DNA of 35,231 nucleotides from Kiritimatiellia bacterium (GTDB lineage: Bacteria; Verrucomicrobiota; Kiritimatiellia; RFP12; UBA1067): contig JAKSOX010000002.1 of the NCBI GenBank assembly GCA_024405335.1, positions 1 to 35,231 on the forward strand, read 5' to 3'. How positions within the stretch are numbered: position 1 is the stretch's first letter; each line of letters starts with the position of its first letter. This document shows, one piece after another, positions 2,385 to 18,248 of this stretch. The translations under genes were made by a program, and so were the position numbers. Under the pieces are notes generated by a model. The model was not told the DNA's origin, did no database searches, and saw nothing but the letters and a program-made list of their open reading frames with translations.

Positions 2385-2464
2385 GAACAGGTTGGTCGAG
2401 CCGCCCGTTCGACCGGCCCCGTCGCCCGCGCGGCAACAAAGAACAAGCAGCAAGCACGAACACG

Positions 2465-2473
2465 TGTTATAAT
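2465..2473 (+). promoter_or_regulatory. extended -10 promoter box TGtTATAAT, leaderless geometry
   Basis: TATAAT at 2468-2473 with TG at 2465-2466. The ATG of the 1939-aa gene starts at 2480, 6 nt after the hexamer, and no SD lies between them. Confidence 0.55.
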
Positions 2474-2479
2474 GGCGGC

Positions 2480-5400
2480 ATGAAAAGATCTCTGTTTGTT
2501 TTTGCGGCGGCCGCGGCGGCGGTTGCGACTGCGTGCGGCGGGACGTTCCCGCTGAACGAGGGCTGGAAATTCCATCGCGGGGACGCGAAGGGCGCCGAGG
2601 CGGTCGCGTTCGACGACGCGGCCTGGGATGTCGTGCGCGTGCCGCACGACTGGGCCATAGGCGAGGCGTTCGACAAAACGATCGACGCGCAGTCCGTGAA
2701 GGTGATCGAGGACGGCGAAACGAAGGCGCGCCTGCGCGTCGGCCGCACGGGCTGCCTGCCGTGGATCGGCGCTGGCTGGTACCGCCGCACGGTGGCGATT
2801 CCCGCGGACGCGGCCCGCGCCGAGCTCGTGTTCGACGGGGCGATGTCGCACGCCGCCGTCTACGCGAACGGCAAGAAGGCGGGCGAATGGAAGAACGGCT
2901 ACAACTCCTTCGCCGTCGATTTGACGCCGTTCCTGCCCGCGAAGGAGATCGTCGTCGCGGTGCGGCTCGAAAACCCCGAGGAAAGTTCGCGCTGGTATCC
3001 GGGCGCGGGGTTGATCCGCCCCGTGGCGCTCGTGACCGGCGGCGCGTTCGGTTTCGAACGCTGGGGCACGTTCGTGCGTACCACGCGGCTTTCGCCGGAG
3101 GGCGCGCGCGTGGTGGTCACCACCGCGACGCGCGGCGAAAAGCCGCGCGGGAAATGCGAAATCGCCTACCGAGTCGCGGCCGAGAAGGGCGGCGAAACGT
3201 TCCGCGCCACGCGCCCGCTGACGGGCGACGAAACGTCGCATGCGTTCACGATTCCCAATCCGCGCACGTGGACGCCGGAAACGCCGGAGCTCTACGTGCT
3301 CGAGGAAACGCTGCTCGTGGACGGCAAGCCGGCGGACTTCGCCACGGTGCGTTTCGGCGTGCGGACGGTGGAGTGGCGCAACGGCCGATTCGAACTGAAC
3401 GGCGTCGCGCGCAAATTCAAGGGCGCGTGCCTGCACCACGACGCCGGTCCCGTGGGCGCCGCGTTCAACGCCGCCGCGTTCCGCCGCCAGGTGAAGCTGC
3501 TGAAGGAAATCGGGTGCGATTCCATCCGCACGGCGCACAACGCTCCCGCGCCCGGGCAGCTGGAAATCTGCGACGAACTCGGCATGATGGTGATGGCTGA
3601 GTCGTTCGACGAATGGGCCGAGGCGAAATGCAAAAACGGCTACCACCTCCATTTCGCCGACTGGTGGCGCCGCGACGTCGCGAACCTCGTCCGCCGCAAC
3701 CGCAACCACCCGTCCGTGGTGATGTGGTCCATCGGCAATGAGATCACCGACCAGCGCACGGCCGCGGGCACCGCGCTTTCGCGCGCGATGCAGGATCTCT
3801 GCCACGACCTCGATCCGACGCGGCCCGTCACGCAGGGGCATTCCTGGATGCCGCAGGCGATCGACGCGGGCGGCGTGCAGGTGATGGACGTGCCGGGCGT
3901 GACCTACCGGCTGCCGTTTTACGGCATGCTCCACGACGCCTCCCGTTTTGGCGGCGTGCTGGGCGCGGAAACGGCGAGCACCGTGTCGTCGCGCGGATGC
4001 TACGCGTTTCCGGACGAAATCGGCGCGGGCGCGCGCCGTCCCGACGGCCAGTCGAGCTCCTACGACGTGGAGTACGCGCCCTGGAGCAACCTGCCGGACG
4101 ACGACTGGGCCGTCCAGGACGACAACGCCTGGACGCTGGGCGAATTCGTGTGGACGGGTTTCGACTACCTGGGCGAACCGTATCCCTACGACGCGCACGC
4201 TTCGCGGTCGTCCTACTTCGGCATCTACGACCTCGCGGGCCTGCCGAAGGACCGCGCGTTCCTCTACCGCAGCCGCTGGCTCGAAACGTCGCCCACGCTG
4301 CATCTGCTGCCGCATTGGACGTGGCCGGGCCGCGAAGGCAAGACCACGCCCGCCTACTGCTACACCTCGTGGCCCGAGGCGGAACTTTTCGTGAACGGCA
4401 AGTCGCAGGGGCGCCTCAAGCGCGATCCCGCCTCGCGCCTCGACCGCTACCGGCTCCGGTGGCGCGGCGTCGTCTACGAGCCGGGCGAACTCAAGGTGGT
4501 CGCCTACGACGAGGCTGGCAGGCCGGCCGCGGAGCGGACGGCGAGGACCGCCGGCGCGCCGGCGCGGCTCGTCGCGGAAGTGGACCGCGCGCGGCTCGCC
4601 GCCGCCACGGCGGACGGCACGCCCGATCTCGCGTTTGCGACCGTGAAAGTCGTCGACAAAGACGGGAACCTTTGTCCCGACGCCGCGCCGCAGCTGCATT
4701 TCGCCGTCGCAGGTGCGGTGCGTTTCAAGGCCGCCGAAAACGGCGACGCGACCTCCTTCGAGAAGCTTTCCGCGCCCACGCGCAAGGCGTTTCGCGGCAT
4801 GTGCGTGGCCGTGCTCGAAGCTGGCGCGAAGCCGGGCGCGGCGCGTTTCGCCGTGTCGGCGGAAGGTCTTGGCGCGGCGACGGTGGATTTGCGCGTGGAC
4901 GACTTCGACGTGCGCGCGTTCGGCGCGCGCGCGGGCGGCGGCGCGGCGGCGAACCGCACGGCGATCCAACGCGCCGTGGACGCGGCGGCGGCCGCGGGCG
5001 GCGGGCGCGTGGTGGTGCCGGCGGGGACGTTCCTCACGGGCTCCGTGGAGTTGAAGGACGGCGTCGAGTTCCACCTCGCGAAAGGCGCGGTGCTGAAGGC
5101 GACCACGGACCTTTCCCTGTACAACGCCGACGACGCCTACCCGCAGTGCGGCTCGTGCGTGCCAGAGGAGTGGAGCGGCGCGCATCTGCTCTACGCCGTG
5201 GAACGGGAGAACGTGGCCGTCACCGGCGAAGGCACGATCGACGGCAGCGGACCGGAGTTCTTCGGTCCACCGGACACGAACTACTGGCCTTGGTACCGCC
5301 ACGGCCTGAAACTGCATCCGCTCGACCGCGACCGCTACCGCACCGGCCAGCAAATCGCGATCGTGGAATGCCGTGGCGTGCGGATCGAGGACTTCACCTT

Positions 5401-8299
5401 CACCAATTCCGCGTGCTGGACGTGCTTCATCCACGGCTGCACGGACGTGACGGTGAAGGGCTACAAGGCGTTCAACGACCGCACCATCGCCAATTCGGAC
5501 GGTTTGTCCATCGACTGCTGCCGCAACGTGGCGGTGACTGGTTGCGAAATCCTGACGGGCGACGACGGCATCGCGATCCGCGCGAGCGGTTCGCGGCTCA
5601 AAAAGCCGCAGGCGTGCGAAAACGTGGTGGTCTCGAACTGCACGATATCGAGCTGCTGCTACGGCATCCGCATCGGCGTGGGCGACGGCGACGTGAAGAA
5701 CGTGCGCGTTTCGCATTGCCGCTTCCCGGAAACGGCCGGCTGCATCGGTTTCACCTGCGCGTGGATCGCCGGCAAACGCAACGTGCACGTGTCGGACGTG
5801 GCCGTGTCGGACTGCGTGTTCGAGGATTCCGCCACGGGCGTCGAATTCCAGACGGCGCACGACGATTCGCCGTCCGCCATCGACGGCGTGTCGTTCGACC
5901 GTTGCCTTTTCCGCACGGCGTGGGGGCACGTTTTCGGGGGCGGCGGCGAAACGAAAAAGCACGTGCCGCGCAACGTCTCGTTCAGGGACTGCACCTTCGA
6001 GGCGATCAAGGACTTCGCCAACCGCGGCGAGGCCTGGTCGCCGGCGTTCGCCGGCGTCTGGCCTGGCCGCGCGCTCGTCGGAAACCACGTCGGCGAGAAC
6101 GTGTCTTTCGAGCGTTGCCGCGCCGTTTGGCCGAAGGAATCCGGTCCCTGGTGCTGGCGTCTCACGCGCGCGTTCGACGGCCGCGAACGCACGAAGTTCG
6201 TCGATTGCGACTTCTCCGAACCGCCCACGGACGCGGACGCGAAGAAACCGCCGGCGTACGAAGCGCCGAAGCGCGTCGAAGCCGAGTACGATTTCCGCAA
6301 GCGGCTTTCCGCGCCGCGCCAATGGCGCGACCGCGGTTTCACGGGCGCGCCCAAGGCGGCGGACGAAATCGCGCTGGACGACCACTGGACGTTCGCGGTG
6401 GAATCCGACGAGCCCGTGGTGAAGCACGCCGCGAAGGACCTGAAGGACTTCCTGGAAAAACGCTGCTGGGCGCGCTGCGCCGGCAAAGACGGCAAAAAGC
6501 GAATCGTCGTGGCCGTTGCGCCGGAAAAGAATCCGCTCACGGCGCGCATCTCCGTTTCCGAAAACGAAATCCGCGTCACGGGCGCCACGCCGCGCGAAAC
6601 GGCGCAGGCGTGCTACCGGTTCGAGGACGAACTCGAGCGCCGCGACCGGCCCGCGGCGAAACTCGGTTCGCGCACGTACACGCGCATGTTCTCGCCGCGC
6701 ATGACGCATTCCGGATACGAGATCGAAAAGTTCCCCGACTGGCACATGGATCAGATCGCGCGCGCCGGCATGGACGCGATTCTCGTGTACGTGCGGGAAC
6801 CGCCGGACGTCACGCGCAACGGGCGCGAAGACATGAACGCGCTCGTCCGCCGCGCGGCCGAACACGGCCTCGACGTGTACGCGTACTTCGACTGGTGGGG
6901 ACGTCCCGTCGCGAAACATCCGCTCGATCCCGGCGCCGAGGAATACTACGACAAGGCGTTTGGATCCATCGTCGAAAACGCGCCCGGCATCAAAGGCATG
7001 GTGATCGTGGGCGAATCGTGCAGCTTCCCCTCGCGCGATCCGGGCGTGTACGGCTACGCATGGTCCGGCTCCGGCATCGCGCCGGATCCGAAGCACCCGA
7101 AGAAGGGCGTGAACGGTTTCTGGCCCGCGTCCGACTGGAAAGAGGCGCTCGAACTCATCGCCAAGGTCACGCGCAAGCACAATCCCGATTTCGACGTGCT
7201 GTTCTGGACCTACAACTGGGCGGGCGCGCCCGAGAAGGACCGTCTCGCGCTCATTGAACGCATCCCCACGAACGTTTCGCTGCACGTCACCTTCGAGATG
7301 GGCGACGGCCACGTCGACGACTACTCCATTTCGCGTCCCGGTCCGAGTTTCGTGTTCACGGGCGAGACGGGCGTGGCGACGCGCCGCGGAATCCGCGTCA
7401 CCGCGATGTCCAACACGGGCGGCCGCACGTGGGACTTCGGCGGCATTCCCTACGTGCCCGCGCCGTACCGCTGGCTGGACCGCTTCCGCGGCCTGCGCGA
7501 CGCCCACGCGAACGCGTCGCTGACGGGGCTCATGGACGAACACCACTACGGTTTCGCGCCGAATCCCATGGCCGACTTCGCCAAAATCGCGTTCACGGAG
7601 GAAACCCGGGACGCGGATCTCGAACCCGCGTTGCGGGCGCTCGCCGTGCGCGAATTCGGCGCGCTGGGCGCCGAGGAGGGGCTCGCCGCGTGGAAGGACT
7701 GGTCCGAAGCGATGCGCGGACACTCCGCCAAGAACTTCGACCAATACGGCTGCCTGCGCATCGGCTCCACGTATCCGTTCGCGTTCCTGGGCGAGCGGCT
7801 GCCCGATCCGCCGCCGTGGTTCGGCGACGAACCCGGCCGCAAGGGCGGGCATTGGACGTATTTGTGGGAGACGGCCGGCGGCGGCTGGGGCTGGCAGATG
7901 AAGAAGGCGGATATCGCCAAGTGGCTCGCGGCAGCCGAGAAGGAACTCGCGCTGTGGCGAAGCGGCAACGCGCACGCGGAAAAGGCGGCGAAGACCGCGC
8001 CGCCGGAACTGCGGGATGCGACGGCGCGCCATCTTGCGCTGGGGCGTTATTGCGAGGCGGCGTTGCGCACGTCGCGCAACGTGAAGAAGTTCTGGCTGCT
8101 GGGCCCGCAGGGCGACAAGGAGGAATTGCTGAAAACGCTGGACGACGAAGAGGCGAACGTGAAGGCGCTCATGCCGTACGTGGAGTTCGATTCGCAGCTC
8201 GGGTGGGAACCGTCCATGCGCTACGTCACTTCGCCGCGCTGCCTGGAGTGGAAGCTCGAACAGCTTGCGTCCGTCCGCCGCCGTCTCGCGTCGTTGTGA
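2480..8299 (+). CDS. 1939-aa secreted triple-module glycosidase: GH2 (beta-galactosidase/beta-glucuronidase family) + GH28-like right-handed beta-helix + C-terminal unassigned glycosidase-like module
   Basis: Start chosen at MKRSLFVFAAAAAAVATA (signal peptide); the track ORF begins upstream at 2324. GH2: NEGWKFHRGD...WDVVRVPHDW, IRTAHNAPAPGQLEICDELGMMVMAES, NHPSVVMWSIGNE (WSIGNE at 3725-3742), LGEFVWTGFDYLGEP. GH28-like: FGARAGGGAAANRTAIQRAVDAAAAAGGGRVVVPAGTFLTG, NSDGLSID (5492-5515), GDDGIAIR (5558-5581). A Pro-rich linker lies at about 6215-6275. The last ~670 aa begin with a GH20b/GH67N-like alpha/beta subdomain pattern and continue as a probable barrel (MDAILVYVRE...AAEHGLDVYAYFDWW). Confidence 0.85.
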   Translation: MKRSLFVFAAAAAAVATACGGTFPLNEGWKFHRGDAKGAEAVAFDDAAWDVVRVPHDWAIGEAFDKTIDAQSVKVIEDGETKARLRVGRTGCLPWIGAGWYRRTVAIPADAARAELVFDGAMSHAAVYANGKKAGEWKNGYNSFAVDLTPFLPAKEIVVAVRLENPEESSRWYPGAGLIRPVALVTGGAFGFERWGTFVRTTRLSPEGARVVVTTATRGEKPRGKCEIAYRVAAEKGGETFRATRPLTGDETSHAFTIPNPRTWTPETPELYVLEETLLVDGKPADFATVRFGVRTVEWRNGRFELNGVARKFKGACLHHDAGPVGAAFNAAAFRRQVKLLKEIGCDSIRTAHNAPAPGQLEICDELGMMVMAESFDEWAEAKCKNGYHLHFADWWRRDVANLVRRNRNHPSVVMWSIGNEITDQRTAAGTALSRAMQDLCHDLDPTRPVTQGHSWMPQAIDAGGVQVMDVPGVTYRLPFYGMLHDASRFGGVLGAETASTVSSRGCYAFPDEIGAGARRPDGQSSSYDVEYAPWSNLPDDDWAVQDDNAWTLGEFVWTGFDYLGEPYPYDAHASRSSYFGIYDLAGLPKDRAFLYRSRWLETSPTLHLLPHWTWPGREGKTTPAYCYTSWPEAELFVNGKSQGRLKRDPASRLDRYRLRWRGVVYEPGELKVVAYDEAGRPAAERTARTAGAPARLVAEVDRARLAAATADGTPDLAFATVKVVDKDGNLCPDAAPQLHFAVAGAVRFKAAENGDATSFEKLSAPTRKAFRGMCVAVLEAGAKPGAARFAVSAEGLGAATVDLRVDDFDVRAFGARAGGGAAANRTAIQRAVDAAAAAGGGRVVVPAGTFLTGSVELKDGVEFHLAKGAVLKATTDLSLYNADDAYPQCGSCVPEEWSGAHLLYAVERENVAVTGEGTIDGSGPEFFGPPDTNYWPWYRHGLKLHPLDRDRYRTGQQIAIVECRGVRIEDFTFTNSACWTCFIHGCTDVTVKGYKAFNDRTIANSDGLSIDCCRNVAVTGCEILTGDDGIAIRASGSRLKKPQACENVVVSNCTISSCCYGIRIGVGDGDVKNVRVSHCRFPETAGCIGFTCAWIAGKRNVHVSDVAVSDCVFEDSATGVEFQTAHDDSPSAIDGVSFDRCLFRTAWGHVFGGGGETKKHVPRNVSFRDCTFEAIKDFANRGEAWSPAFAGVWPGRALVGNHVGENVSFERCRAVWPKESGPWCWRLTRAFDGRERTKFVDCDFSEPPTDADAKKPPAYEAPKRVEAEYDFRKRLSAPRQWRDRGFTGAPKAADEIALDDHWTFAVESDEPVVKHAAKDLKDFLEKRCWARCAGKDGKKRIVVAVAPEKNPLTARISVSENEIRVTGATPRETAQACYRFEDELERRDRPAAKLGSRTYTRMFSPRMTHSGYEIEKFPDWHMDQIARAGMDAILVYVREPPDVTRNGREDMNALVRRAAEHGLDVYAYFDWWGRPVAKHPLDPGAEEYYDKAFGSIVENAPGIKGMVIVGESCSFPSRDPGVYGYAWSGSGIAPDPKHPKKGVNGFWPASDWKEALELIAKVTRKHNPDFDVLFWTYNWAGAPEKDRLALIERIPTNVSLHVTFEMGDGHVDDYSISRPGPSFVFTGETGVATRRGIRVTAMSNTGGRTWDFGGIPYVPAPYRWLDRFRGLRDAHANASLTGLMDEHHYGFAPNPMADFAKIAFTEETRDADLEPALRALAVREFGALGAEEGLAAWKDWSEAMRGHSAKNFDQYGCLRIGSTYPFAFLGERLPDPPPWFGDEPGRKGGHWTYLWETAGGGWGWQMKKADIAKWLAAAEKELALWRSGNAHAEKAAKTAPPELRDATARHLALGRYCEAALRTSRNVKKFWLLGPQGDKEELLKTLDDEEANVKALMPYVEFDSQLGWEPSMRYVTSPRCLEWKLEQLASVRRRLASL

Positions 8300-8381: not shown

Positions 8382-9458
8382 ATGAAGAGTATGCTTTTCG
8401 TTTCGTTTGTTTTCGCCGGGGCGGTTTGCTTCGGCGCGGAGTCGTTGACGTTGCCGGTGGCGACGGTGGCCGCGCGGGCGGACCGCCGCGCGTTGACGTA
8501 CCCGGGGCGCGTCGTTTCCGTTGCGCGCGTGGACGTGGTGCCGCAGGTGTCGGGCGAAATCCTCGAGGTGTGTTTCGCGAACGGCGCCGTGGTGAAGGCG
8601 GGCGACGTGCTCTACCGCATTGACCCGGTCCAGTACGAAGCGGCGGTGAAAAACGCGGAGTCCAAGCTGGCCGAGTGCAAGGCGAGCGCGCAATACGCCG
8701 AGCTTTCGTACGGGCGCCACAGCAAACTGCTGGACACGCGCGCCGTCTCCGCCGATTCGGTGGACAACGCGCTTTCGCAGCGCGACTCCCTGCGCGCGGC
8801 GCTGGCGGCGGCACAGGCCGATCTCGTGGCCGCGCGGGACGACCTGAAGCACTGCACGATCGTGGCGCCGATCGCGGGCAAGCTGGGCAGCACCACGAAA
8901 ACCAAGGGCAACTACACGGTGAAGGGCGGCGAAACGCTGGTGACGCTCGTGCAGGCGTCGCCCATCCGCGTGTGCTTCGCCATTTCCAACCGCGAATTCC
9001 TCGACTATTTCGGCGGCGTCGGCGGGCGCATCCGGGAAGATTCCGAGGTGTCGCTTTCGCTGGCGAACGGCGAGCCGTACGGCGAACGCGGCGCGGTGGA
9101 ATACGTGGACAACGAGTCCGACGACCGCACCGACACGACGCTCGTGTACGTGCTTTTCCGGAACGACGACCGCAAACTCCGCGCGGGCGGAACCGTGTCG
9201 GTGACGCTGTCGTCCAAGAACGGGTGCGCGCGTCCAGCGATTCCGCCCACCGCGATCCTGCAGGACACGCAAGGCCCCTACGTGTGGGTGTTGGACGAGA
9301 ACGGCGTCGCGTCGCGTCGGTCCGTCGCCCGCGGCGAGGCCGTCGGCGACTGGCTGTTCGTCGAGAAGGGACTCAAGGTCGGCGAACGCATCGTCGCCGA
9401 CGGCGCGCATCGCGTGAAGCGGGGAATGGTGGTGTCGCCCGCCCCGGAGGCCAGGTGA
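8382..9458 (+). CDS. RND efflux membrane fusion (periplasmic adaptor) protein, AcrA/MexA family
   Basis: Signal or anchor [19 protein letters not shown]. Lipoyl-hairpin pattern [34 protein letters not shown]...coiled coil...[15 protein letters not shown]. Its stop overlaps the start of the RND pump gene (GTGATG). Confidence 0.85.
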
Positions 9459-12400
9459 TGGACGGCGGCCGTTTCGGGCGGAAGTGGCCCAGCTTGTCGC
9501 GCACGTTCATCGACCATCCGCGCGCGGCGTGGGCGATTTCGATCGTGATGACGCTGTGCGGGCTGATCTGCCTTTCGCGCATGGCGGTGGCGGAATATCC
9601 GAGCATCACTCCGGTGACGATCACGGTGTCCTGCACGTACACTGGCGCGGGCACGGAGGACCTTTCGGATTCCGTGGGCCAAATCCTCGAGGACCAGATC
9701 AACGGCGTGGACGACCTGTGGTACTACAAGTCGAACTGCAGCAACAAGGGTTCGTACAACTGCTACTGCACGTTCCGGCCGGGAATCGATTCGAACGTGG
9801 CGCTGATGAACGTGCAGAACGCCGTGAAGCGCGCGGAGCCGAAGCTGCCGAGCGAGGTTTCCGCGAACGGCATCACGGTGCGCAAGCGTCCCGAGGACCG
9901 CATGGTGATGTACTGCTTCATGACGGACGGCCGCGAGATGGACATCATGGAGCTGTCGAACTTCGTGGAGAAGCAGATGGCGGACGCGATCGCGCGCGTG
10001 GACGGCGTGGGCCAGGTGGAGACCTCGGGGCGGACGTACGCGATGCGCATCTGGCTCGATCCGATCAAGCTTTCTGGCCTGGGGCTTTCCATTTCCGAAA
10101 TCAAAAGCGCCATCGAATCGCAGAACGTGCAGGCGGCTGCCGGCACGGTGGGCGGCGAATACGCCAACCGCTACCTCACCTTCAAGCTGAACGTGAAGGG
10201 CCGGCTCAAGACGAAGGACGAGTTCGAGAACATCGTGATCCGCTCCAATCCGGACACGGGCGCGCAGATTCTGGTGAAGGACGTCGCGCGCGTGGAGCTG
10301 GGATGCAAGGGCTACACGATCCGTTCGCGCTTCAACGACAACCCCGTGGTGTACCTGGAGGTGTACAAGTCGCCCGAAGCGAACTCCGTGGAGACGGCTG
10401 GCCGCGTGAAGCGCGAAATCGAAAAGTGGATCGCGCGCATGCCCGCTGGCGTGGAAGGGGTGTTGGCGGACGATTCGACGGCGTTCACGCTGGTGTTCCT
10501 CAAGGAGACGTTCAAGACGCTGCTGGTCGCGCTGCTGCTGGTGGTGGCCATCACCTACCTCTTCCTGCAGGACTGGCGCGCGACGTTCGTGCCGGCGATC
10601 GCGATTCCGATTTCGCTGTGCGCCACTTTCGCGGTGTTGTATCCGCTGGGCTACACGGTGAACGTGCTCACGATGTTCGGGCTCATTCTGGTGATCGGTT
10701 CGCTCGTGGACGACGCGATCGTGGTGGTGGAGAACTGCCAGGCGCTCATGCTGCGCGAAGGGCTTTCCGCCAAAGAGGCCGCGATGAAATCCATGACGCA
10801 GATCACGGGCGCCATCGTGGCGACGACGCTGGTGACGCTCGCGTGCTACCTGCCGCTGGTGTTCTATTCGGGCATGGTGGGGCTGATGTACGCGCAGTTC
10901 GCCGTGGCGATGTGCGTGGCGCTGTGCTTTTCCACCGTGGTGGCGATCGTGCTGTCGCCCGTGCTGTGCGCGTACATGCTCAAGCCGCCGCGCGCGAAGG
11001 CGCGGCTCGTGTTCCGTCCGTTCAACGCCGGCCTCGAACTTTCCCGCCGCTGCTATCTCGCGTTCGTGCGCTTCTTCGCGCGGCGCGCGCTGATCACGCT
11101 GCTGCTGTTCGCGGCCGTCGGCGCCGGGTTGTGGCACGTCTCCGGCAAGGTGCCCACGACGTTCCTGCCGAAGGAGGACCGCGGCTACGTCAGCTGGTAT
11201 TGTCGGCTGGCGGAAGGGCAGTCCCTGGACCGCACGATCGACGTGGTGGACGCATTTCACGACCGCGTCGCGAAGATCCCGGGCGTGATGTCGATGTCCT
11301 CGCGCTGCGGATCGAACGGCATGTGGGGCTCGGGCGAGAACCTCGGCGGCGGTTTGATCCGCCTGGACCACTGGGACGAACGGCGCACGGACGACCTGAA
11401 GATCGACGCGGTGATGGCGCGCCTGAAGGCGGCGGCGGCGGATCTGTACGCGGCGGAATTCGTGTTCACGCAGCCGGCGGCGATCAAGGGCCTCGGCGGG
11501 TCGTCCGGCGTGGGGTTCAACTTCTGTTCCGTGGACGGCTGCACGCCCGAGGAGCTGCTCGCCGCCGTGGACGGCGTGGTGGACGCGCTGAAGACGAACA
11601 AGCTCGTGAAAAGCGCGGTGCACGGGTTCACCTGTTCGACGCCGCAGCTCGAGCTCGTGCTCGACCGCCGGAAGGTGGAACTGCTCGGGCTCACGCCGAA
11701 GACCGTGTTCGCGACGCTCCAGAACAAGCTCGCCTCCTACTACGTGAACGACTTCAACATCAAGCGCGGCGTGTACCAGGTGAAACTCCAGAACGATCCC
11801 GACTACCGCGCCGGCGTCGCCGACGTGCTCGCGATCCAGGTGACGACGCCCGCGGGCGAATCGGTGCCGTTGTCGTCGCTGGGCACGCTCGAGTACGTGG
11901 GCGGCACGCGCGAAACGATGAGCTACAACAAGATGCTCGCGGCGTGGTGCGACGTGACGCCGGCGGACGGCGTGCCGTCGTCGGACGTGATGCGGCTGAT
12001 CGAATCGACGCCGATGCCGAAGGGGTTCGCCGTGGAGTGGGGGCCGGTGCAGCTGCAGGAAAAGGAAAACGAGGGCCGTCTGCTGTGGCTCATGGCGGCC
12101 GCGCTCGTGTTCGCGTACCTGTTCCTCGTGGCGCAGTACGAAAGCTGGACGATTCCCCTGTCCGTGATGCTTTCGGTGCTGTTCGCGGTGGCGGGCGCGT
12201 TTCTGGGGCTGTGGCTCGCGCACGTGCCGCTTTCCATCTACGCGCAGCTCGGCTGCGTGATGCTGATCGGCCTGGCGGCGAAGAACGCCATTCTGATGGT
12301 GGAGTTTTCGAAGCAGGAGCGCGAGGCGGGCAAGAGCGTGTTCGACGCGGCGCTTTCCGGCGCGTCGCTGCGCTACCGCGCGGTGCTGATGACGGCGTGG

Positions 12401-12685: not shown

Positions 12686-12761
12686 GGGGAAGTAGCTCAG
12701 TTGGTAGAGCATCACGTTCGCAACGTGGGGGTCGAGAGTTCGAATCTCTTCTTCTCCACCA
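12686..12761 (+). tRNA. tRNA-Ala (anticodon CGC), CCA encoded
   Basis: Hand-folded 76-nt cloverleaf. Acceptor GGGGAAG/CTTCTCC includes the G3:U70 alanine identity pair. D arm GCTC-AGTTGGTA-GAGC. Anticodon arm TCACG-TTCGCAA-CGTGG. T arm GAGAG-TTCGAAT-CTCTT. Discriminator A followed by CCA. Confidence 0.93.
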
Positions 12762-12768
12762 TTTGATG

Positions 12769-12811
12769 AAAAGCGGCAGTTGCCTGGTACGTTTGGGCAC
12801 GCCGCTTTTTT
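12769..12811 (+). terminator. rho-independent terminator after tRNA-Ala
   Basis: AAAAGCGGC (12769-12777) pairs with GCCGCTTTT (12801-12809). An inner TGCC/GGCA pairing is possible. A run of 6 T follows. Confidence 0.7.
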
Positions 12812-12852
12812 GTTGTCTTCAAAGCGTTCGTGCTACACATTTTTAGCGGAAA

Positions 12853-12861
12853 TGGTATAAT
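12853..12861 (+). promoter_or_regulatory. extended -10 promoter box TGgTATAAT for the five-gene stator-like operon
   Basis: TG-G-TATAAT lies about 40 nt after the tRNA terminator and 31 nt before the ATG at 12893, which has AGGAGG at 12881-12886. Confidence 0.5.
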
Positions 12862-12892
12862 TGGCGGTGATCAAGTTCAAAGGAGGTCGGGA

Positions 12893-13579
12893 ATGAGACT
12901 CAAGGCGAAGACGATTACGGCGATGGCGCTGGCGTTCTGGGGAACGCTGGCTTTCGCGTGCGCGTTGGCGTTCGTCAACAACGTCGTGGTGATATCGAGG
13001 TGGTGGGCCGCGTTCGCGGCGTGCGGCGGCGATTCGTCGCAAATGCCCAAGGAAATCGTGGGCTGGGGCGCGTGGATCGACTGGTCCGCCGTGGACTATT
13101 CCGCCGTTTCCACGTTCATTCCGCTTTTCGGATGCCTGTGCGTGGTGAAGGGGCTGCTGGGCATTCTCTTCGAGCGCAAGGCCGATCCCACGCACTTCCC
13201 GTTTTTCGCGGCGGCGGACCAGCTGAACGTCGCGCTCGGCCTCGTGGGCACGCTGTGGGGCATCATCGTCATCGGCTACTTCCAGCTCGACAAGGTTTCC
13301 ATGTACGACCTGATGCACTGCCTGCACACCGCGCTCTTTTCGACGCTGGTGGCGGTGGTGTGGGTGTTCGTCGTGGACCATCCGATCGTGCGTCCGATGC
13401 TGCAGGGGCTGCTCGCGAAGAACAACCTCGACGAGCCGGTCGAGTCGGACGTGCTGGCGGCGGTGGAGAAACTCACGCACAATCTCGTCCAGGCGGCCGC
13501 CGAAACGAAGCGCATGGGCGACGACATCCGCGAAATCAACGCGAAGATGGAAAAGATCCGCGACATCCTCAAGGCCTGA
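12893..13579 (+). CDS. divergent MotA/TolQ/ExbB-family proton-channel-like membrane protein (228 aa) with a short C-terminal coiled coil
   Basis: Start at MRLKAK with a strong SD; the track ORF begins at 12830. It has four hydrophobic helices. The last two carry LGLVGTLWGI (13235-13264) and HTALFSTLVAVV (13325-13360), resembling the TolQ/ExbB signature helices (LGLxGTVxGI ... AEALxATAxGL) with similar Thr-to-Thr spacing. The C-terminal ~55 aa are heptad-like (VEKLTHNLVQAAAETKRMGDDIREINAKMEKIRDILKA). Confidence 0.5.
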   Translation: MRLKAKTITAMALAFWGTLAFACALAFVNNVVVISRWWAAFAACGGDSSQMPKEIVGWGAWIDWSAVDYSAVSTFIPLFGCLCVVKGLLGILFERKADPTHFPFFAAADQLNVALGLVGTLWGIIVIGYFQLDKVSMYDLMHCLHTALFSTLVAVVWVFVVDHPIVRPMLQGLLAKNNLDEPVESDVLAAVEKLTHNLVQAAAETKRMGDDIREINAKMEKIRDILKA

Positions 13580-13582
13580 GCC

Positions 13583-14320
13583 ATGACCGCATCCGACAAA
13601 GCCGTGTTGCTCCGCCTGGCTGGCGGCAGGTCCCGGGCGGGGGCGTCAGTGGACGATCTCCAGGGACTGCTGCTGCAGATCACGCTCGCGATCATGGTGA
13701 TTTTCATCATCGCGTTCTTCATCTTCCGCGAGAAGGCCACGCGCGACGCGCAAAGCGCCGAGCAGGCGCGCCAGGAGGAAGTGCTGAAGCTGAATCTGCA
13801 GAAGCTCACGCTGGCGGCGGACCGCGTGGAGCAGGAGCGCCGCGCGCGCTACGGGCTTGGCGTGAAGGCGGCGGACGTGGTCCAGGGCGGCGCGCTGACG
13901 GCGGCGCCCACGGTGCGCGAGGCGTTCGTGTCCGGCGCGAAGTCCGCGCGCGCGGACTTCGCGGACGCCTCGAAACTGGCGGCCGAATGGCGCGCGGGCG
14001 TCCTGGCGGCGGCGGAACTCGGCGCGGACGCGCTGGGCGAGGACGAGCGCGCCTGGCTCGCGAAGCGCGTGGAAAAGGACGTCGCCTCCGTCCGCGCGGA
14101 CGTGGTGCTGCTGCAGCGGAATTGCGCCACGGCGTTCCAGATCGCCTGGCTCGCCAACCCCAAGTCCATCGGCGACTCCGAACTCGCCGGGCTCGTCGGG
14201 CGGCTCAAAGGCGCCGACGACCAGACGCGCCTCATGCTCGCCACGGAAATTTCCGCGGCGCTCAAGGAGCGCAGCTTGAAACGGCTCGAGGAACTCACCG
14301 GCGCGGAGGTGCTGCCATGA
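13583..14320 (+). CDS. MotB/TolR/ExbD-like single-pass membrane protein (245 aa) with an all-helical periplasmic region and no OmpA-type domain seen
   Basis: Begins 3 nt after the upstream stop. Short N-terminal cytoplasmic segment, then Asp-Asp (13652-13657) directly before the only TM helix, LLLQITLAIMVIFIIAFFIF. This matches the position of the essential Asp in MotB/TolR/ExbD. The remainder is Ala/Glu/Arg-rich and predicted helical or coiled coil. Confidence 0.4.
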   Translation: MTASDKAVLLRLAGGRSRAGASVDDLQGLLLQITLAIMVIFIIAFFIFREKATRDAQSAEQARQEEVLKLNLQKLTLAADRVEQERRARYGLGVKAADVVQGGALTAAPTVREAFVSGAKSARADFADASKLAAEWRAGVLAAAELGADALGEDERAWLAKRVEKDVASVRADVVLLQRNCATAFQIAWLANPKSIGDSELAGLVGRLKGADDQTRLMLATEISAALKERSLKRLEELTGAEVLP

Positions 14321-16110
14321 AGCGCGTGGAGTCCGTTTTCTTCTTCTTTTTCGCGGCTGCGGCCGCCGCGTTCGCGCAGGAAAGCGCGTTCGACCGCACG
14401 GCGGCGGAAGGCGCCGCGCGCATCGTGCTCGCGGAACTCGCCGCCGACACGCTCACGGGCCGTGGCGTCGACGCCGCGCTGTTCGCGAAGATGCTGGAAG
14501 ACCCGGGCAAATACCGCACGTCCGCCGAAGCCGAGGCCCTGCTCAGGGCGGACTACAAGCTCGAACTCGCGACGAACTACGCCGACAAGGCGCGCCAAGT
14601 GCTGGCGCGGCTCGCCAAGCCGCACAAGACGGAAGAGGCGTTCGCGGCGGAATTCGCCGCCGCGTCCGCCGCGCTCGACGCCGCCGCGCTCGACGAGTCG
14701 GCCGCTTCGGCGTATCCAGCCGTGTACGCCGCCGCCCGCACGAACGCCTGCGCGCGGCAGGCGCGGGGACTCGTCGCGCTCGTGCGCCCCACCGAGGCGG
14801 AGGTGGACGCCCTCGACGGCGCGGAGCTGAAGAAAACGCTCACCGAGCGCCTGGTCGCCAACCAGCGGACGCCCGTGTTCGAGGAGAACGTCGCCTACGT
14901 GTCCGAACGGCTCGCCGAGCCGTTGATCGCCGACGCCGAAAACCAGCGCAAGCGCCAGGGCGAAATCGTCAAGCGCGCGCATCCCGAAGGATGGGCGCCG
15001 GAAGTGGTGGCCGGGAACCTCGTGCGCCATCTGCTGGAGCGCGTCGCGGACGACAAGGCGCGGACGAAGGAAGGCGAATGGACGTACGGCGTGTTTCCGT
15101 CCGTCACGAACAAAACGCTCGAGGCCGCCGTGGAGAAGAACGTGCTCGCGCACGTCGCCGAGTCCGTGGCGGGAGTTCCCGTGACGATCGACGAGGAGCT
15201 GGTGATCCGGGCGGTGGGCGCCGCGCCGGACAAGGCCGCGCGCAACGAGGACGCGGCGAAAACGGTGCGGCCGCAGTTCGAGGACGAACTCAAGGCGTCC
15301 GCGCTGGCGGACGCCGTCGCCGAAGCGCCGGAGCGGGAGCGCGAGGCGTTCCGCGCCTACGCCGCCGCGCGTTTGGGCCACGGCGCGGTGAAGAAGGCCG
15401 TGCAGGAGCGCACGGACCGCGAACTGACGCCGGTGATCGAGCGCGTGCGCGCGGCGTATGCGCGCGAGTTCAAGCTCGTGGACGACTGCGGCGACCGCGT
15501 CGCGAACGAAATGAAGCGGCTGATCCCCAAAGGCGAACCGCTGCCCGACGTGGCGACGCTGGAGAAGGATCTCGCGCGGATGGTGGCGGCGGGCTGGGAG
15601 TCTTCGCGCGGCGCGACGCTCTTCCCCGGCGTGAAGGAGGACGAACACCCCATCGCCATCGCGGAACTGTACGCGGACGTGTTTCCGCCGGTGAAGGCGC
15701 GCATCAAGGAAAAGGCGAAGGCGATTCTGGACGCCGTGAAGCTCGCCGGCCATTCCAAGGGCGGCGGCGGGGTGATGGGCCGGTTCACCTGCACCGTGGA
15801 ACTCAAGCGCACGGACGCGCAAATCACCGCCGACTTCCGCATGGAAGGCGCGCAGATCGAACAGATCGCGCTCGACGCCGACCCCGCCAAGTTCCGTGGC
15901 GACATCGCCGCCGCGGCCCAGAAGGCGCGCGGGCTGCTCGCGGACGCCCTCGCGAAGAAGAATCTCGGCCCCGGCATGATCCTCACGGTGGAAATCGTCG
16001 CGGACGATCTCGTCTACTACGGCGCGGCGACGGAATTCCTGCGCGCAGTCCAGGACGCGGCCGAAAAACTGGGAATCGCCGTGGAGCGCCCGGAAGGGGC
16101 GTTCAAGTGA
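14317..16110 (+). CDS. secreted 597-aa Ala-rich helical protein with a Gly-linker and ~115-aa C-terminal globular domain; function unknown
   Basis: The ATG overlaps the upstream stop (ATGA at 14317-14320). Signal peptide MKRVESVFFFFFAAAAAAFA/QE. A long Ala/Glu/Arg-rich region follows, then KGGGG (about 15757-15771), then the C-terminal segment GRFTCTVELKRTDAQITADFRMEG...DPAKFRGDIAAAAQKA. Confidence 0.7.
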   Translation: MKRVESVFFFFFAAAAAAFAQESAFDRTAAEGAARIVLAELAADTLTGRGVDAALFAKMLEDPGKYRTSAEAEALLRADYKLELATNYADKARQVLARLAKPHKTEEAFAAEFAAASAALDAAALDESAASAYPAVYAAARTNACARQARGLVALVRPTEAEVDALDGAELKKTLTERLVANQRTPVFEENVAYVSERLAEPLIADAENQRKRQGEIVKRAHPEGWAPEVVAGNLVRHLLERVADDKARTKEGEWTYGVFPSVTNKTLEAAVEKNVLAHVAESVAGVPVTIDEELVIRAVGAAPDKAARNEDAAKTVRPQFEDELKASALADAVAEAPEREREAFRAYAAARLGHGAVKKAVQERTDRELTPVIERVRAAYAREFKLVDDCGDRVANEMKRLIPKGEPLPDVATLEKDLARMVAAGWESSRGATLFPGVKEDEHPIAIAELYADVFPPVKARIKEKAKAILDAVKLAGHSKGGGGVMGRFTCTVELKRTDAQITADFRMEGAQIEQIALDADPAKFRGDIAAAAQKARGLLADALAKKNLGPGMILTVEIVADDLVYYGAATEFLRAVQDAAEKLGIAVERPEGAFK

Positions 16111-17249
16111 CGAGCGTTTCGAAGCTGCTGTTCGGAAACGACGAACCCAACGACCGCCTGCGCTACGCGGAGGGCGTCCACGGGCGTCCCGTGGTGGTGT
16201 GGAACGTCACCGCCGCCTGCAACCTCAGATGCGCGCACTGCTACGCGGCCGTGGACGCCGCGGCCGGCGCGCCGAAGGAGCTATCCACTGAAGAGGCGTT
16301 TCGCGTCGTAGACGATCTGGCCGCCTTCAAGGCGCCGGTGCTGCTTTTTTCCGGCGGCGAACCGTTTTTGCGACAGGACGTGTTCGCGCTGGCCGAGCGC
16401 GCTAAGAACGCCGGTCTGCGCGTGACCTTTTCCACGAACGGCACGCTGATCGACGACGCGAAGGCGGATCGGCTCGCGGCGCTGGGCGTGGGGTACGTGG
16501 GCGTTTCCGTCGACGGCACGGAGCAGGTGCACGATGCGTTCCGCCGCCGTCCTGGCGCGTACCGGGCGTCCCTCGCGGCGATTCGGCGGCTGCTCGCGCG
16601 CGGCGTGAAAGTGGGGTTGCGCGTGACCCTGACGCGCCACAACGTCGCGTGCATTCCCGCGCTTTTCGAACTGCTGCGCGCGGAGGGCGTGCCGCGGATT
16701 TGCCTGTACCACCTCGTCTACACGGGCCGCGGCGCGGAAATCGCCGCGAGCGATCTTTCCGCCGCAGAACGCCGCGCGGCGCTCGACGCCGTCGTGGCGG
16801 AAACGCGCAAGTGCTTCGACGCCGGCAAGCCCGTGGAAGTGCTAACGGTGGACAACCACTGCGACGGCCCGTACCTGTACGAACGCGCGTGCGCGGAAGG
16901 CCCCGGCTTCGCGCGGCGTTCGCCAGAAAGCATGCTCGCCCTGCTGAAGCTAAACGGCGGCAACGCCTCGGGCTCCGGCATCGCGTCCATTTCGTGGGAC
17001 GGCACGGTTTTCCCGGACCAGTTCTGGCGGAACCGTCCCGTCGGGAACGTGCGCGCGAAGCCGTTTTCGGAAATCTGGGGCGATCCGCCGCCCGGCTCGC
17101 TGCTCGCGCAGTTGCGCGAACGTCGGCCGCTGCTGCCGGAAAAGTGCCGGGCCTGCAAATGGCTTTCCGCGTGCAACGGCAATTTCCGCGCGCGCGGAGA
17201 AGCGGTCGCGGGCGACGCGTGGGGCATGGATCCAGCGTGCTATTTGTGA
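16107..17249 (+). CDS. radical SAM / SPASM-domain enzyme, NirJ/AhbC/AhbD-like
   Basis: The GTG start overlaps the upstream stop (GTGA at 16107-16110). CxxxCxxC motif CNLRCAHC at 16218-16241 in the context RPVVVWNVTAACNLRCAHCY. LLFSGGEPFLRQD is present. C-terminal Cys-rich SPASM-like tail GNVRAKPFSEIW...CRACKWLSACNGNFRARGEAVAGDAWGMDPACYL. Confidence 0.75.
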   Translation: MTSVSKLLFGNDEPNDRLRYAEGVHGRPVVVWNVTAACNLRCAHCYAAVDAAAGAPKELSTEEAFRVVDDLAAFKAPVLLFSGGEPFLRQDVFALAERAKNAGLRVTFSTNGTLIDDAKADRLAALGVGYVGVSVDGTEQVHDAFRRRPGAYRASLAAIRRLLARGVKVGLRVTLTRHNVACIPALFELLRAEGVPRICLYHLVYTGRGAEIAASDLSAAERRAALDAVVAETRKCFDAGKPVEVLTVDNHCDGPYLYERACAEGPGFARRSPESMLALLKLNGGNASGSGIASISWDGTVFPDQFWRNRPVGNVRAKPFSEIWGDPPPGSLLAQLRERRPLLPEKCRACKWLSACNGNFRARGEAVAGDAWGMDPACYL

Positions 17250-17272
17250 GACCGGAATCTGGAGGATCGATC

Positions 17273-17695
17273 GTGGAGTTCACATTGAACAAGGAGTTTT
17301 TCCGGCGGCATTTGGGCGTCGCGCTGCTGATGGCGGGGCTCGGGTGCTGGTTTTCGTTCGACGCGGCAGTCGCGTATCCGGCCCGCCGGGAGCCGGCGGA
17401 CAAAATCGCGCGCCAATGGCAGTTCGCCGGATTGTCGTTTCTGGCGGCGCTCGCCATCGGCGGGCATTTGCTGAAAGTCCGCCGCGAGACGCTGGCGTGG
17501 GACGACTCGGCGATGACGGGCTCGCTCACGGGCGGCAAACCGGCGGCCTTCGCGGACGTCGCCGAGGTCGACGACCGCAAGTGGCGCGGAAAAGGCGTGC
17601 TCGTCGTCCGCATGAACGACGGCCGCACGATCACGCTCGACGCCTGGCACCACCCGGAAGCAGAAGAACTGGCGAAGCGGTTGCTGGACCGCTGA
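17273..17695 (+). CDS. small membrane protein (140 aa): two TM helices plus a ~70-aa soluble C-terminal domain (possibly bacterial PH-like)
   Basis: GTG start 6 nt after GGAGGA (17261-17266). Hydrophobic helices LGVALLMAGLGCWFSFDAAV and FAGLSFLAALAIGGHLL. The C-terminal part (LAWDDSAMTG...GKGVLVVRMNDGRTITLDAW) suggests a bPH-type fold by eye only. Confidence 0.55.
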   Translation: MEFTLNKEFFRRHLGVALLMAGLGCWFSFDAAVAYPARREPADKIARQWQFAGLSFLAALAIGGHLLKVRRETLAWDDSAMTGSLTGGKPAAFADVAEVDDRKWRGKGVLVVRMNDGRTITLDAWHHPEAEELAKRLLDR

Positions 17696-17726: not shown

Positions 17727-18224
17727 TCAGTTCTTTTCGGCGGGCTTCTTGTCGCCTTCTTTGGCGGCCTTGCGTGCCGCGCGCTTTGCTTCGTCGGCCG
17801 CGATCTTGGCCGACAGTTCCTGCTTGGCCTTTTCGAGCTGTTCGGGCGAGAGCACGTTTTTGGCGGCGATGACGGCCTTCATCTGTTCCTTGACCACCGC
17901 CTTGCGCAAGTCGTATATCTCGTCGATGGCCGCCATCACGGCGTTTTCGTCGATACGGTCGGCCTCGAACGCGGCGGCGTTCCGTTCCATCGCCTGTTTA
18001 TGCTTTTCGCGCAGGGCCTTGGCGGCGTCGTCGCCGGCCTTGCACAATTCTTTGATTTGGGCGATTTGTTCTTTGGTGAGGCCGATCTTCTCGGCCACCT
18101 TGCGGTCCTTGACGAGGCGCACGACGGGATCGTTGCCGGGTTCACGCGGCGCGGGGCGCTTGGCTTCCGCGGCGAAAGTCGCGCCAACGAGCGCGACGAC
18201 TGCCATCAACGAAAACAATTTCAT
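17727..18224 (-). CDS. periplasmic Spy/CpxP-family (LTXXQ-motif) helical protein
   Basis: Signal peptide MKLFSLMAVVALVGATFA. Two LTXXQ-type motifs (LTKEQ, LSPEQ) sit in a Lys/Glu/Ala-rich helical protein. The second ATG (18224) has better SD spacing (AAGGAG + 8 nt) than the ATG at 18230. Confidence 0.7.
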   Translation of the reverse strand: MKLFSLMAVVALVGATFAAEAKRPAPREPGNDPVVRLVKDRKVAEKIGLTKEQIAQIKELCKAGDDAAKALREKHKQAMERNAAAFEADRIDENAVMAAIDEIYDLRKAVVKEQMKAVIAAKNVLSPEQLEKAKQELSAKIAADEAKRAARKAAKEGDKKPAEKN

Positions 18225-18248
18225 GGACATGACTCCTTTTTGCCCGCC

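Follow-up and report, generated by a model that had tools for sequence, protein, structure and literature searches.

Ion-driven motors of the 5:2 (A5B2) type, namely, the Mot, Ton, Tol, Gld and Zor systems, are known carriers of inner-membrane energy to the periplasm and the outer membrane, and each variant newly recognized so far has revealed a new output mechanism. In Zorya, the five ZorA chains have C-termini that bundle into a long cytoplasmic tail that is needed for function, and D24 of ZorB is crucial for defense (PMC11890865). GldM and PorM build a long dimer in the periplasm that drives other periplasmic components without binding the wall (in part from PMC9389320). Bacteria of the Planctomycetes-Verrucomicrobia-Chlamydiae group, including Tichowtungia of the Kiritimatiellota, have TolQ-like/TolR-like motors with von Willebrand factor A (vWA) force transducers that belong neither to Tol nor to Ton, and a 2025 force-transducer catalogue reports that in Kiritimatiella glycovorans the tolB-pal operon is split and that a TolA could not be annotated (PMC12204202, supplement 1). 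Here we analyze a 35,231-nucleotide (nt) stretch of DNA from a Kiritimatiellia bacterium (contig JAKSOX010000002.1; GC content of about 65%), called the window below. It carries three tightly coupled genes on the + strand (genes 1, 2 and 3, encoding proteins A, B and C; together, the triad), all annotated as "hypothetical" and conserved in abundant, barely studied bacteria of the gut and rumen. We lean, a little beyond an even chance, toward reading the triad as a variant of the MotA/ExbB/TolQ-type 5:2 ion-driven machines with a novel periplasmic output.

Gene 1 and the MotA/ExbB/TolQ superfamily

Gene 1 (12893 to 13579, + strand) encodes a protein of 228 residues with four hydrophobic helices. 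In its AlphaFold2 (AF2) monomer model (predicted local distance difference test [pLDDT] of 85), helices span residues 2 to 43, 72 to 92, 108 to 129 and 137 to 176, followed by a C-terminal one at 186 to 227. A profile built from 67 close homologs had TolQ chains as its top four matches in the PDB, and a broad-family profile that includes distant relatives matched TolQ in the PDB with an E value of 2.5e−6 and the ZorA structure 8vvi with one of 5.8e−4. Aligned with hhalign against Escherichia coli TolQ, the transmembrane (TM) core of gene 1 reached 83% probability with 19 sequences and 91% (E = 1.1e−6) with 96 sequences, over 61 columns that include both TM helices; this channel core corresponds to residues 98 to 158 (13184 to 13366, + strand). 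The Pfam family PF01618 was matched by 38 of 50 distant relatives (best E = 6.8e−10). Gene 1 by itself matched the PADLOC model of ZorA at E = 1.2e−3 and the NCBIfam models of TolQ and ZorA at E values of 0.07 to 0.12 only. A Foldseek search of the AF2 model against 350,000 chains returned ExbB, TolQ and PomA as the top 13 matches, and MotA chains were also among the matches. Because independent weak matches in Pfam, PADLOC (ZorA) and the PDB profile search name the same superfamily, we take A to be a motor homolog, and the profile comparisons indicate that it is a real but very divergent member of the MotA/ExbB/TolQ superfamily. This kinship had been proposed in an earlier note on the same DNA, which was made from the sequence without database searches; it stands as a distant homology that reaches TolQ at the level of the family profile, with gene 1 alone below threshold.

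The core of gene 1 consists of an FPFF loop, TM3 with GLVGT120LWGI and TM4 with H145-T146-ALFS-T151. The four helices, the motif LGLVGTLWGI and a spacing of two threonines close to that of TolQ had been read correctly in the earlier note, and hhalign pairs the residues concerned: T120 with TolQ T145 and T151 with TolQ T178, which are 31 and 33 residues apart in gene 1 and E. coli TolQ, respectively. It also pairs T146, which lies in the second motif (HTALFSTL), with TolQ E173. The threonine/serine ring carried on the last two TM helices by TolQ (T145 and T178) and ExbB (T148 and T181) is found on the last two TM helices of gene 1 as well. T120, T146 and T151 never vary in the 67 close relatives and are conserved to at least 90% in the 50 distant ones, and the FPF loop and GxxGTxWG show little or no variation throughout the family.

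Around this core, the protein has a strongly conserved periplasmic loop of 38 residues (WWxAF..GGD..WxDWSxVDYS) and only about 15 cytoplasmic residues joining TM2 to TM3. The C-terminal coiled-coil tail spans 89 to 332 residues in relatives (median of 179) and about 60 in the window protein. In one homolog (P0053, positions 8640 to 8744 of locus L001), the tail is made of 33-bp tandem repeats encoding the 11-residue unit F-x-x-R-Q-x-x-Y-E-x-x, which corresponds to a hendecad periodicity; some other tails also consist of 11-residue repeats, and tail length varies widely among species. Members of the family that bear a name in the source databases are called either "hypothetical protein" or by coiled-coil misnomers such as "chromosome segregation ATPase" and "OmpH family."

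The partner genes 2 and 3

Gene 2 (13583 to 14320, + strand) begins 3 nt after the end of gene 1 and encodes a single-pass protein of 245 residues, and this pairing of A with a single-pass B directly downstream is conserved across loci. B has a short N-terminal cytoplasmic segment and one TM helix at residues 26 to 48 (13658 to 13726). In the AF2 monomer model (pLDDT of 83), the TM helix runs on to residue 89, giving a stalk of about 40 residues, and is followed by a helical-bundle head at residues 109 to 239, so that the whole periplasmic part, of about 190 residues, is predicted to be all-helical. B had no match in Pfam, NCBIfam or PADLOC at E values up to 1. Two sets of candidate relatives were discarded: a PDB profile match to a histidine kinase covered the TM helix only (E = 0.015) and was treated as chance, and the Foldseek matches were generic helical bundles (E ≥ 0.7). 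The model and the searches confirm, for the predicted structure, what the earlier note had suspected, namely, that the periplasmic part of B has neither an OmpA-type nor an ExbD/TolR-type fold.

Conservation in B peaks in the N-terminal half of the TM helix. Two aspartates, D24 (13652 to 13654) and D25, precede the helix, and D24, L26 to Q32 (Q32 at 13676 to 13678), A36 and A44 are invariant in 37 homologs, which gives the motif D24xLQGLLLQ32. The residues D24, G28, Q32, A36 and A44 share one face of the helix.

Gene 3 (14317 to 16110, + strand) encodes a secreted, Ala-rich protein of 597 residues (21% Ala, no TM segment). Its cleavable signal peptide comprises residues 1 to 20 (14317 to 14376), with cleavage between AFA and Q, and in an alignment of 25 homologs all had a short signal peptide with an AXA site and none had a TM anchor. 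The Ala-rich domain, which is probably helical judging from its composition, contains the conserved motifs PVFEEN and YGVFPSVTN. After it comes a C-terminal domain (about 100 residues), preceded in most homologs by a spacer rich in Pro, Glu and Lys; in the window protein a Gly linker replaces this spacer, and an internal segment of about 80 residues is missing. The gene 3 proteins of the window and of its relative UBA1731 both lack the segment and the spacer (alignment columns 407 to 488 and 570 to 612), and the same lineage has the shortest gene 1 tail; it carries a reduced version of the system. No relative of gene 3 was found in Pfam or the PDB. A marginal match of its C-terminal domain (15800 to 16110) to the ribosomal protein uL18 (E = 0.023) was set aside as probably due to chance or to a shared small alpha/beta fold.

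The three genes travel together. Among the 58 species-level loci found in the GTDB set, all from Kiritimatiellia or mislabelled relatives, gene 1 is followed directly by genes 2 and 3 in about 50 of the about 53 that have enough sequence (tblastn). The closest relatives of the window proteins are in metagenome-assembled genomes of Kiritimatiellia from rumen and gut. The triad is also intact in six metagenome loci (L001 to L006) and in four distant loci of 36 to 53% GC (L066, L068, L069 and L070), where B and C were matched by hhalign at 97 to 100% probability. Of two further loci, one (L073, 62% GC) has B in split form, followed by a partial C-like open reading frame (ORF) with the motif YGVLPSIQQ, recognized by eye only, and the other (L067, 64% GC) has a B-like neighbor unsupported by hhalign (14.7%). 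The genome scan used exact peptide patterns, and the distribution is thus a lower bound. Flanking genes vary among lineages; in the loci examined they are housekeeping genes (such as lgt, topoisomerase IV and ribosomal proteins), with no defense islands. All-against-all clustering of the neighboring ORFs of about 70 loci revealed no fourth conserved gene, and a neighbor cluster present in 19 loci proved to be alternative-frame ORFs within gene 3. By this synteny, the triad is a self-contained, vertically conserved module of Kiritimatiellia and of some more distant lineages. The "orphan" pair of the earlier note belongs to a family of about 180 representative clusters that almost always come with the same two partner genes. 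The combination of genes, which that note did not recognize as described, did not appear in our literature searches either. Two loci of the distant subfamily showed additional genes close to A: in L073, a gene for a tetratricopeptide repeat (TPR)-like protein (1505 to 1897; faint Pfam match) lies immediately upstream of A, and in L066, a gene for a 23S rRNA intervening-sequence protein (7605 to 8003) is inserted between A and B.

In the reading that we favor, A would form a pentameric channel ring with the conserved threonine ring (T120 and T151) on its last two TM helices, and its C-terminal helices would bundle as a cytoplasmic tail, short in the window protein and longer in its relatives. 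A dimer of B would be held inside the ring by its single TM helix, a helix with one invariant face, with the coiled-coil stalk and helical head projecting into the periplasm, and would not bind peptidoglycan through an OmpA-like domain. C, of 600 to 800 residues in the family, would be the periplasmic element acted on or carried by the motor and would probably reach toward the wall or the outer membrane. The homology of A, the synteny of the three genes, the topologies, the conserved residues and the lack of any known fold match for B or C are what the analysis establishes. Such a machine would have the 5:2 stoichiometry, ion flow and rotation of its relatives, would require contacts among A, B and C, and may serve a housekeeping role in the envelope.

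Several observations weigh against this reading. Gene 1 alone scored below the gathering threshold of PF01618 (18.8 bits against 22.9; E = 1.5e−3). None of its Foldseek matches was significant (E ≥ 0.016, template-modeling scores of 0.2 to 0.26), because the AF2 monomer has an extended shape in the model. When 1.84 billion representative proteins were searched exhaustively with a profile, only 179 relatives were recovered at E ≤ 1e−3, one of which (P0291) was repeat junk, with no direct bridge to canonical MotA, ExbB or TolQ; the link of gene 1 to them is consequently made by profile-profile and transitive evidence. In three loci (L024, L026 and L057), gene 1 is not followed by genes 2 and 3. 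B has no relative in the PDB by sequence profile or by fold (Foldseek), and its aspartate is displaced: D24 precedes the hydrophobic run by two residues, with 24 residues after it, compared with about 16 to 18 after the aspartates of E. coli MotB (D32), ExbD (D25) and TolR (D23). At the depth of that canonical Asp, measured from either end of the run, B has the invariant Q32. In the known motors, a D-to-N change of that Asp is inactivating. The Asp-Asp pair that the earlier note had placed immediately before the helix is indeed there; the likeness it drew to MotB, ExbD and TolR does not extend to position, since in those proteins the Asp lies inside the hydrophobic helix.

The position of Q32 bears on a rival explanation, according to which the triad would be a degenerate, non-conducting relative of the motors and would act as a static scaffold anchoring a helical periplasmic assembly to the inner membrane. 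No ions would be translocated in such a scaffold because Gln replaces the canonical carboxylate of B. The depth of Q32, equal to that of TolR D23 and ExbD D25, agrees with the scaffold, as does the hhalign comparison of the B family with E. coli TolR, which pairs Q32 with D23 at 5% probability and is a register hint only. In distant homologs this position is Q, with Asn in one and Glu in another, and the Glu could be the ancestral state. On the other side, conservation across lineages ranging from 36 to 68% GC is strongest, in A, at the threonine ring and, in B, at the D24-G28-Q32-A36 face, so that an active polar pathway fits better than a relic. Even the most distant B proteins also retain an acidic residue 8 to 9 positions upstream of the Gln. 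We regard the static scaffold as quite unlikely and retain the ion-driven machine as the preferred reading.

Neighboring genes and boundaries of the locus

Two more genes follow the triad on the + strand. Gene 4 (16107 to 17249) encodes a radical S-adenosylmethionine (SAM)/SPASM enzyme of the AhbC/NirJ type, with Radical_SAM and SPASM domains in Pfam. It scored 461 bits against TIGR04546 (AhbC; E = 1e−138) and 430 bits against NirJ1 (E = 1e−129), values that are under the 650-bit equivalog cutoffs of both models and far above those for any peptide maturase. AhbC is 12,18-didecarboxysiroheme deacetylase, and the scores point to tetrapyrrole chemistry and away from peptide maturation. Gene 4 is therefore an unassigned paralog of the radical SAM enzymes of anaerobic heme and heme d1 synthesis that is coupled by a GTGA overlap to the gene of an unrelated secreted protein. 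Radical SAM/SPASM enzymes of peptide maturation are expected to be consistently linked to their substrate genes, whereas of about 70 loci only two, the window and UBA1731 (L007), have gene 4 beside the triad. Gene 5 (17273 to 17695, 140 residues) encodes a protein with two hydrophobic segments, predicted to be TM helices, and without a family match in Pfam, NCBIfam or PADLOC. Its homologs occur near gene 1 only in UBA1731 and in three other loci, L024 (about 9592 to 10047), L026 and L030 (217 to 675), where they are 32 to 34% identical and lie a few kilobases from gene 1; in two of these three species, gene 1 is separated from genes 2 and 3. This proximity may reflect a loose association or chance.

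The earlier note had treated genes 1 to 5 as one unit headed by the A-B pair. In a system of five genes, the product of gene 3 or gene 5, or a cofactor that the motor needs, would be the target of the radical SAM/SPASM enzyme. The arrangement in the window is compatible with it: all five genes are on one strand, genes 3 and 4 share the GTGA overlap, and a gap of 23 nt with a ribosome binding site precedes gene 5; the identical order of five genes is found in UBA1731. That order recurs only there, in an 87%-identical relative, and the best scores of gene 4, which are to tetrapyrrole enzymes, speak against such a system as well. The five-gene system is contradicted because conserved synteny covers genes 1 to 3 only, and we give it hardly any credence. 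Judged by gene order, the functional unit is genes 1 to 3, and genes 4 and 5 are probably co-transcribed with the triad in the window, yet lineage-specific neighbors. As a description of the individual products (a secreted Ala-rich protein, a radical SAM/SPASM enzyme and a two-TM protein for genes 3 to 5), the earlier note holds, with gene 4 now narrowed to the AhbC/NirJ-like type.

Direct reading of the sequence bore out the layout given in that note. Upstream, the block is bounded by a tRNA-Ala(cgc) gene (12686 to 12761, + strand; ARAGORN), whose 3' side carries a terminator-like hairpin with a T-run (about 12768 to 12811, + strand). The hairpin folds with −22 kcal/mol (z = −3.2), and none of 200 shuffled sequences folded as well. 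The sole promoter-like site on the + strand upstream of genes 1 to 5 lies at 12834 to 12861 and is sigma-70-like (TACACA, 16 nt, TG-n-TATAAT with an extended −10; 10 of 12 positions match), a consensus match that may not apply in Kiritimatiellia. AGGAGG lies 6 nt upstream of the ATG of gene 1 (12893). An alternative GTG start at 12830 was rejected, as it is upstream of the −10 box and homologs begin near the ATG. The junctions are a TGA stop of gene 1 (13577 to 13579), 3 nt and the ATG of gene 2 at 13583; an ATGA overlap between genes 2 and 3 (14317 to 14320); a GTGA overlap between genes 3 and 4 (16107 to 16110); and, after the stop of gene 4 at 17249, 23 nt with GGAGGA before the GTG of gene 5 at 17273. 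Downstream, the block ends at a convergent gene (17727 to 18230, − strand) for a CpxP/Spy-like periplasmic protein of the LTXXQ/Metal_resist type (PF13801, E = 5.3e−11; PF07813, E = 2.5e−7), which is separated from gene 5 by 31 nt.

Elsewhere, the window encodes a resistance-nodulation-division (RND) efflux pair, large glycoside hydrolase (GH) fusions, HisD, glycosyltransferases and Lgt. Two of its genes encode very large multidomain enzymes: one of 1,991 residues, in which GH2 is fused to GH28 (pectate-lyase-like), and one of 1,594 residues, in which a GDSL esterase, GH20 and an M20 peptidase are fused (2324 to 8299 and 29729 to 34513, respectively). Both fit a polysaccharide-degrading lifestyle.

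Comparison with known systems

The earlier note had seen no known motor partner in or next to the operon, and according to gene annotation and tblastn the whole window is likewise devoid of Tol, Ton, flagellar, gliding and Zorya genes. With the flagellar stators MotA-MotB and PomA-PomB, the triad shares an A protein with four TM helices and a single-pass B protein, in line with the PomA and MotA chains among the Foldseek matches. In contrast to them, gene 1 lacks the torque-generating cytoplasmic domain between TM2 and TM3, and gene 2 lacks the OmpA-like domain. The A family aligned with E. coli MotA at only 13% probability in hhalign, and we do not class it with the flagellar stators. The likeness to GldL-GldM and PorL-PorM is one of analogy only, in that a B-type TM helix extends into a long periplasmic structure; neither family was matched in Pfam (E up to 1) or Foldseek, and no genes of the type IX secretion system accompany the triad. 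GldL has two TM helices, compared with four in gene 1.

ZorA-ZorB offers closer parallels. A is MotA-like and ends in a C-terminal tail, gene 1 has weak profile matches to ZorA models and to the ZorA structure 8vvi, and B resembles ZorB in the shortness of its N-terminal cytoplasmic segment and in an Asp near residue 24. These parallels, together with the coiled-coil nature, very variable length and occasional 11-residue repeats of the A tail and with the requirement for the bundled ZorA tails, would suit a Zorya-like sensing or signaling device, in which A5B2 would detect a periplasmic or envelope event through B and C and relay it to the cytoplasm by movement of the bundled A tail, as has been proposed for ZorA, in envelope-stress signaling or anti-phage defense. 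Against it, no ZorC, ZorD, ZorE-like effector or other conserved fourth gene lies by the triad, a secreted partner of about 600 residues stands in place of the effectors, and B lacks the peptidoglycan-binding domain that ZorB needs; PADLOC returned nothing for B or C. The context of the triad is housekeeping in the loci examined, and in the window the tail is cut to about 60 residues. A Zorya-like device is, in our view, unlikely, and an energy-transducing machine remains the reading that we prefer.

The vWA loci of PVC bacteria (PMC12204202) resemble the triad as non-Tol, non-Ton loci of motor and transducer genes in the same phylum. They differ in that their vWA transducers are TM-anchored and that they carry a TPR gene along with two heterologous TolR-like genes, whereas the triad has no vWA domain, a single B gene and a secreted partner.

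By sequence, gene 1 has its nearest relatives in TolQ-TolR and ExbB-ExbD. Its loop-TM-loop-TM core can be aligned with theirs, the FPF/IPF loop, GLFGTxWGI and the two channel threonines among the paired parts, and the order of A and then B, tightly coupled and with a single-pass B, is the same. TolQ and ExbB differ in having three TM helices and a large cytoplasmic domain, compared with the four TM helices, conserved periplasmic loop and coiled-coil tail of gene 1, and TolR and ExbD differ from the all-helical periplasmic part of gene 2 and from its Gln at the canonical Asp depth. The triad could accordingly be imagined as the TolQ-TolR-TolA counterpart of Kiritimatiellia, with C in the role of TolA energizing a TolB-Pal pair encoded elsewhere. 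C, like TolA/TonB-type transducers, is rich in Ala and has a small C-terminal domain set off by a Pro/Glu/Lys spacer; both TolB and Pal occur in Kiritimatiellia, and the split tolB-pal operon of K. glycovorans comes without an annotatable TolA. In L034, genes for a TolB-like protein (463 residues) and a Pal-like lipoprotein (182 residues) lie at 63 to 2018, about 4 kb upstream of the triad, a proximity that is suggestive at most and was seen in 1 of about 70 loci. When E. coli TolQ, TolR, TolA, TolB, Pal, ExbB, ExbD, MotA and MotB were searched by tblastn against 743 kb (the window and the loci), a sample too small to tell whether these genomes have canonical TolQ or ExbB, there were few matches: TolQ and ExbB hit gene 1 homologs weakly, L034 gave TolB and Pal, and L020 gave a weak TolB-like protein. 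Contrary to what is expected of a TolA or TonB, C has a cleavable signal peptide and no TM anchor with which to dock to the motor, B and C match no Pfam family (TolA, TonB and ExbD/TolR included), and tolB and pal are not adjacent to the triad. More canonical tolQ-like and tolR-like genes are, moreover, present in the phylum, in the vWA-transducer locus of Tichowtungia. We hold a Tol counterpart to be distinctly unlikely.

A bolder form of the preferred reading, which we offer as a long shot, would make the triad a third trans-envelope energizer besides Ton and Tol, in which a MotA/TolQ-derived ring drives a helical B dimer, the polar pathway runs over an Asp at the membrane edge and a Gln at the classical site, the output is the soluble secreted C, and in Kiritimatiellia the TolB-Pal system without a known TolA is served. 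Should the triad prove an active motor, both ion-coupling geometries and output modules would be more varied than known so far, and the triad might explain how Kiritimatiellia energize envelope functions without an identified TolA.

Set beside all of these systems, the triad keeps the channel signature of the family and differs from every characterized member in three ways. B has a periplasmic fold that is new, as far as the AF2 model tells, and an arrangement of Asp and Gln unseen elsewhere. The third component is secreted and has no membrane anchor. The A ring is stripped down and carries a tail of variable length.

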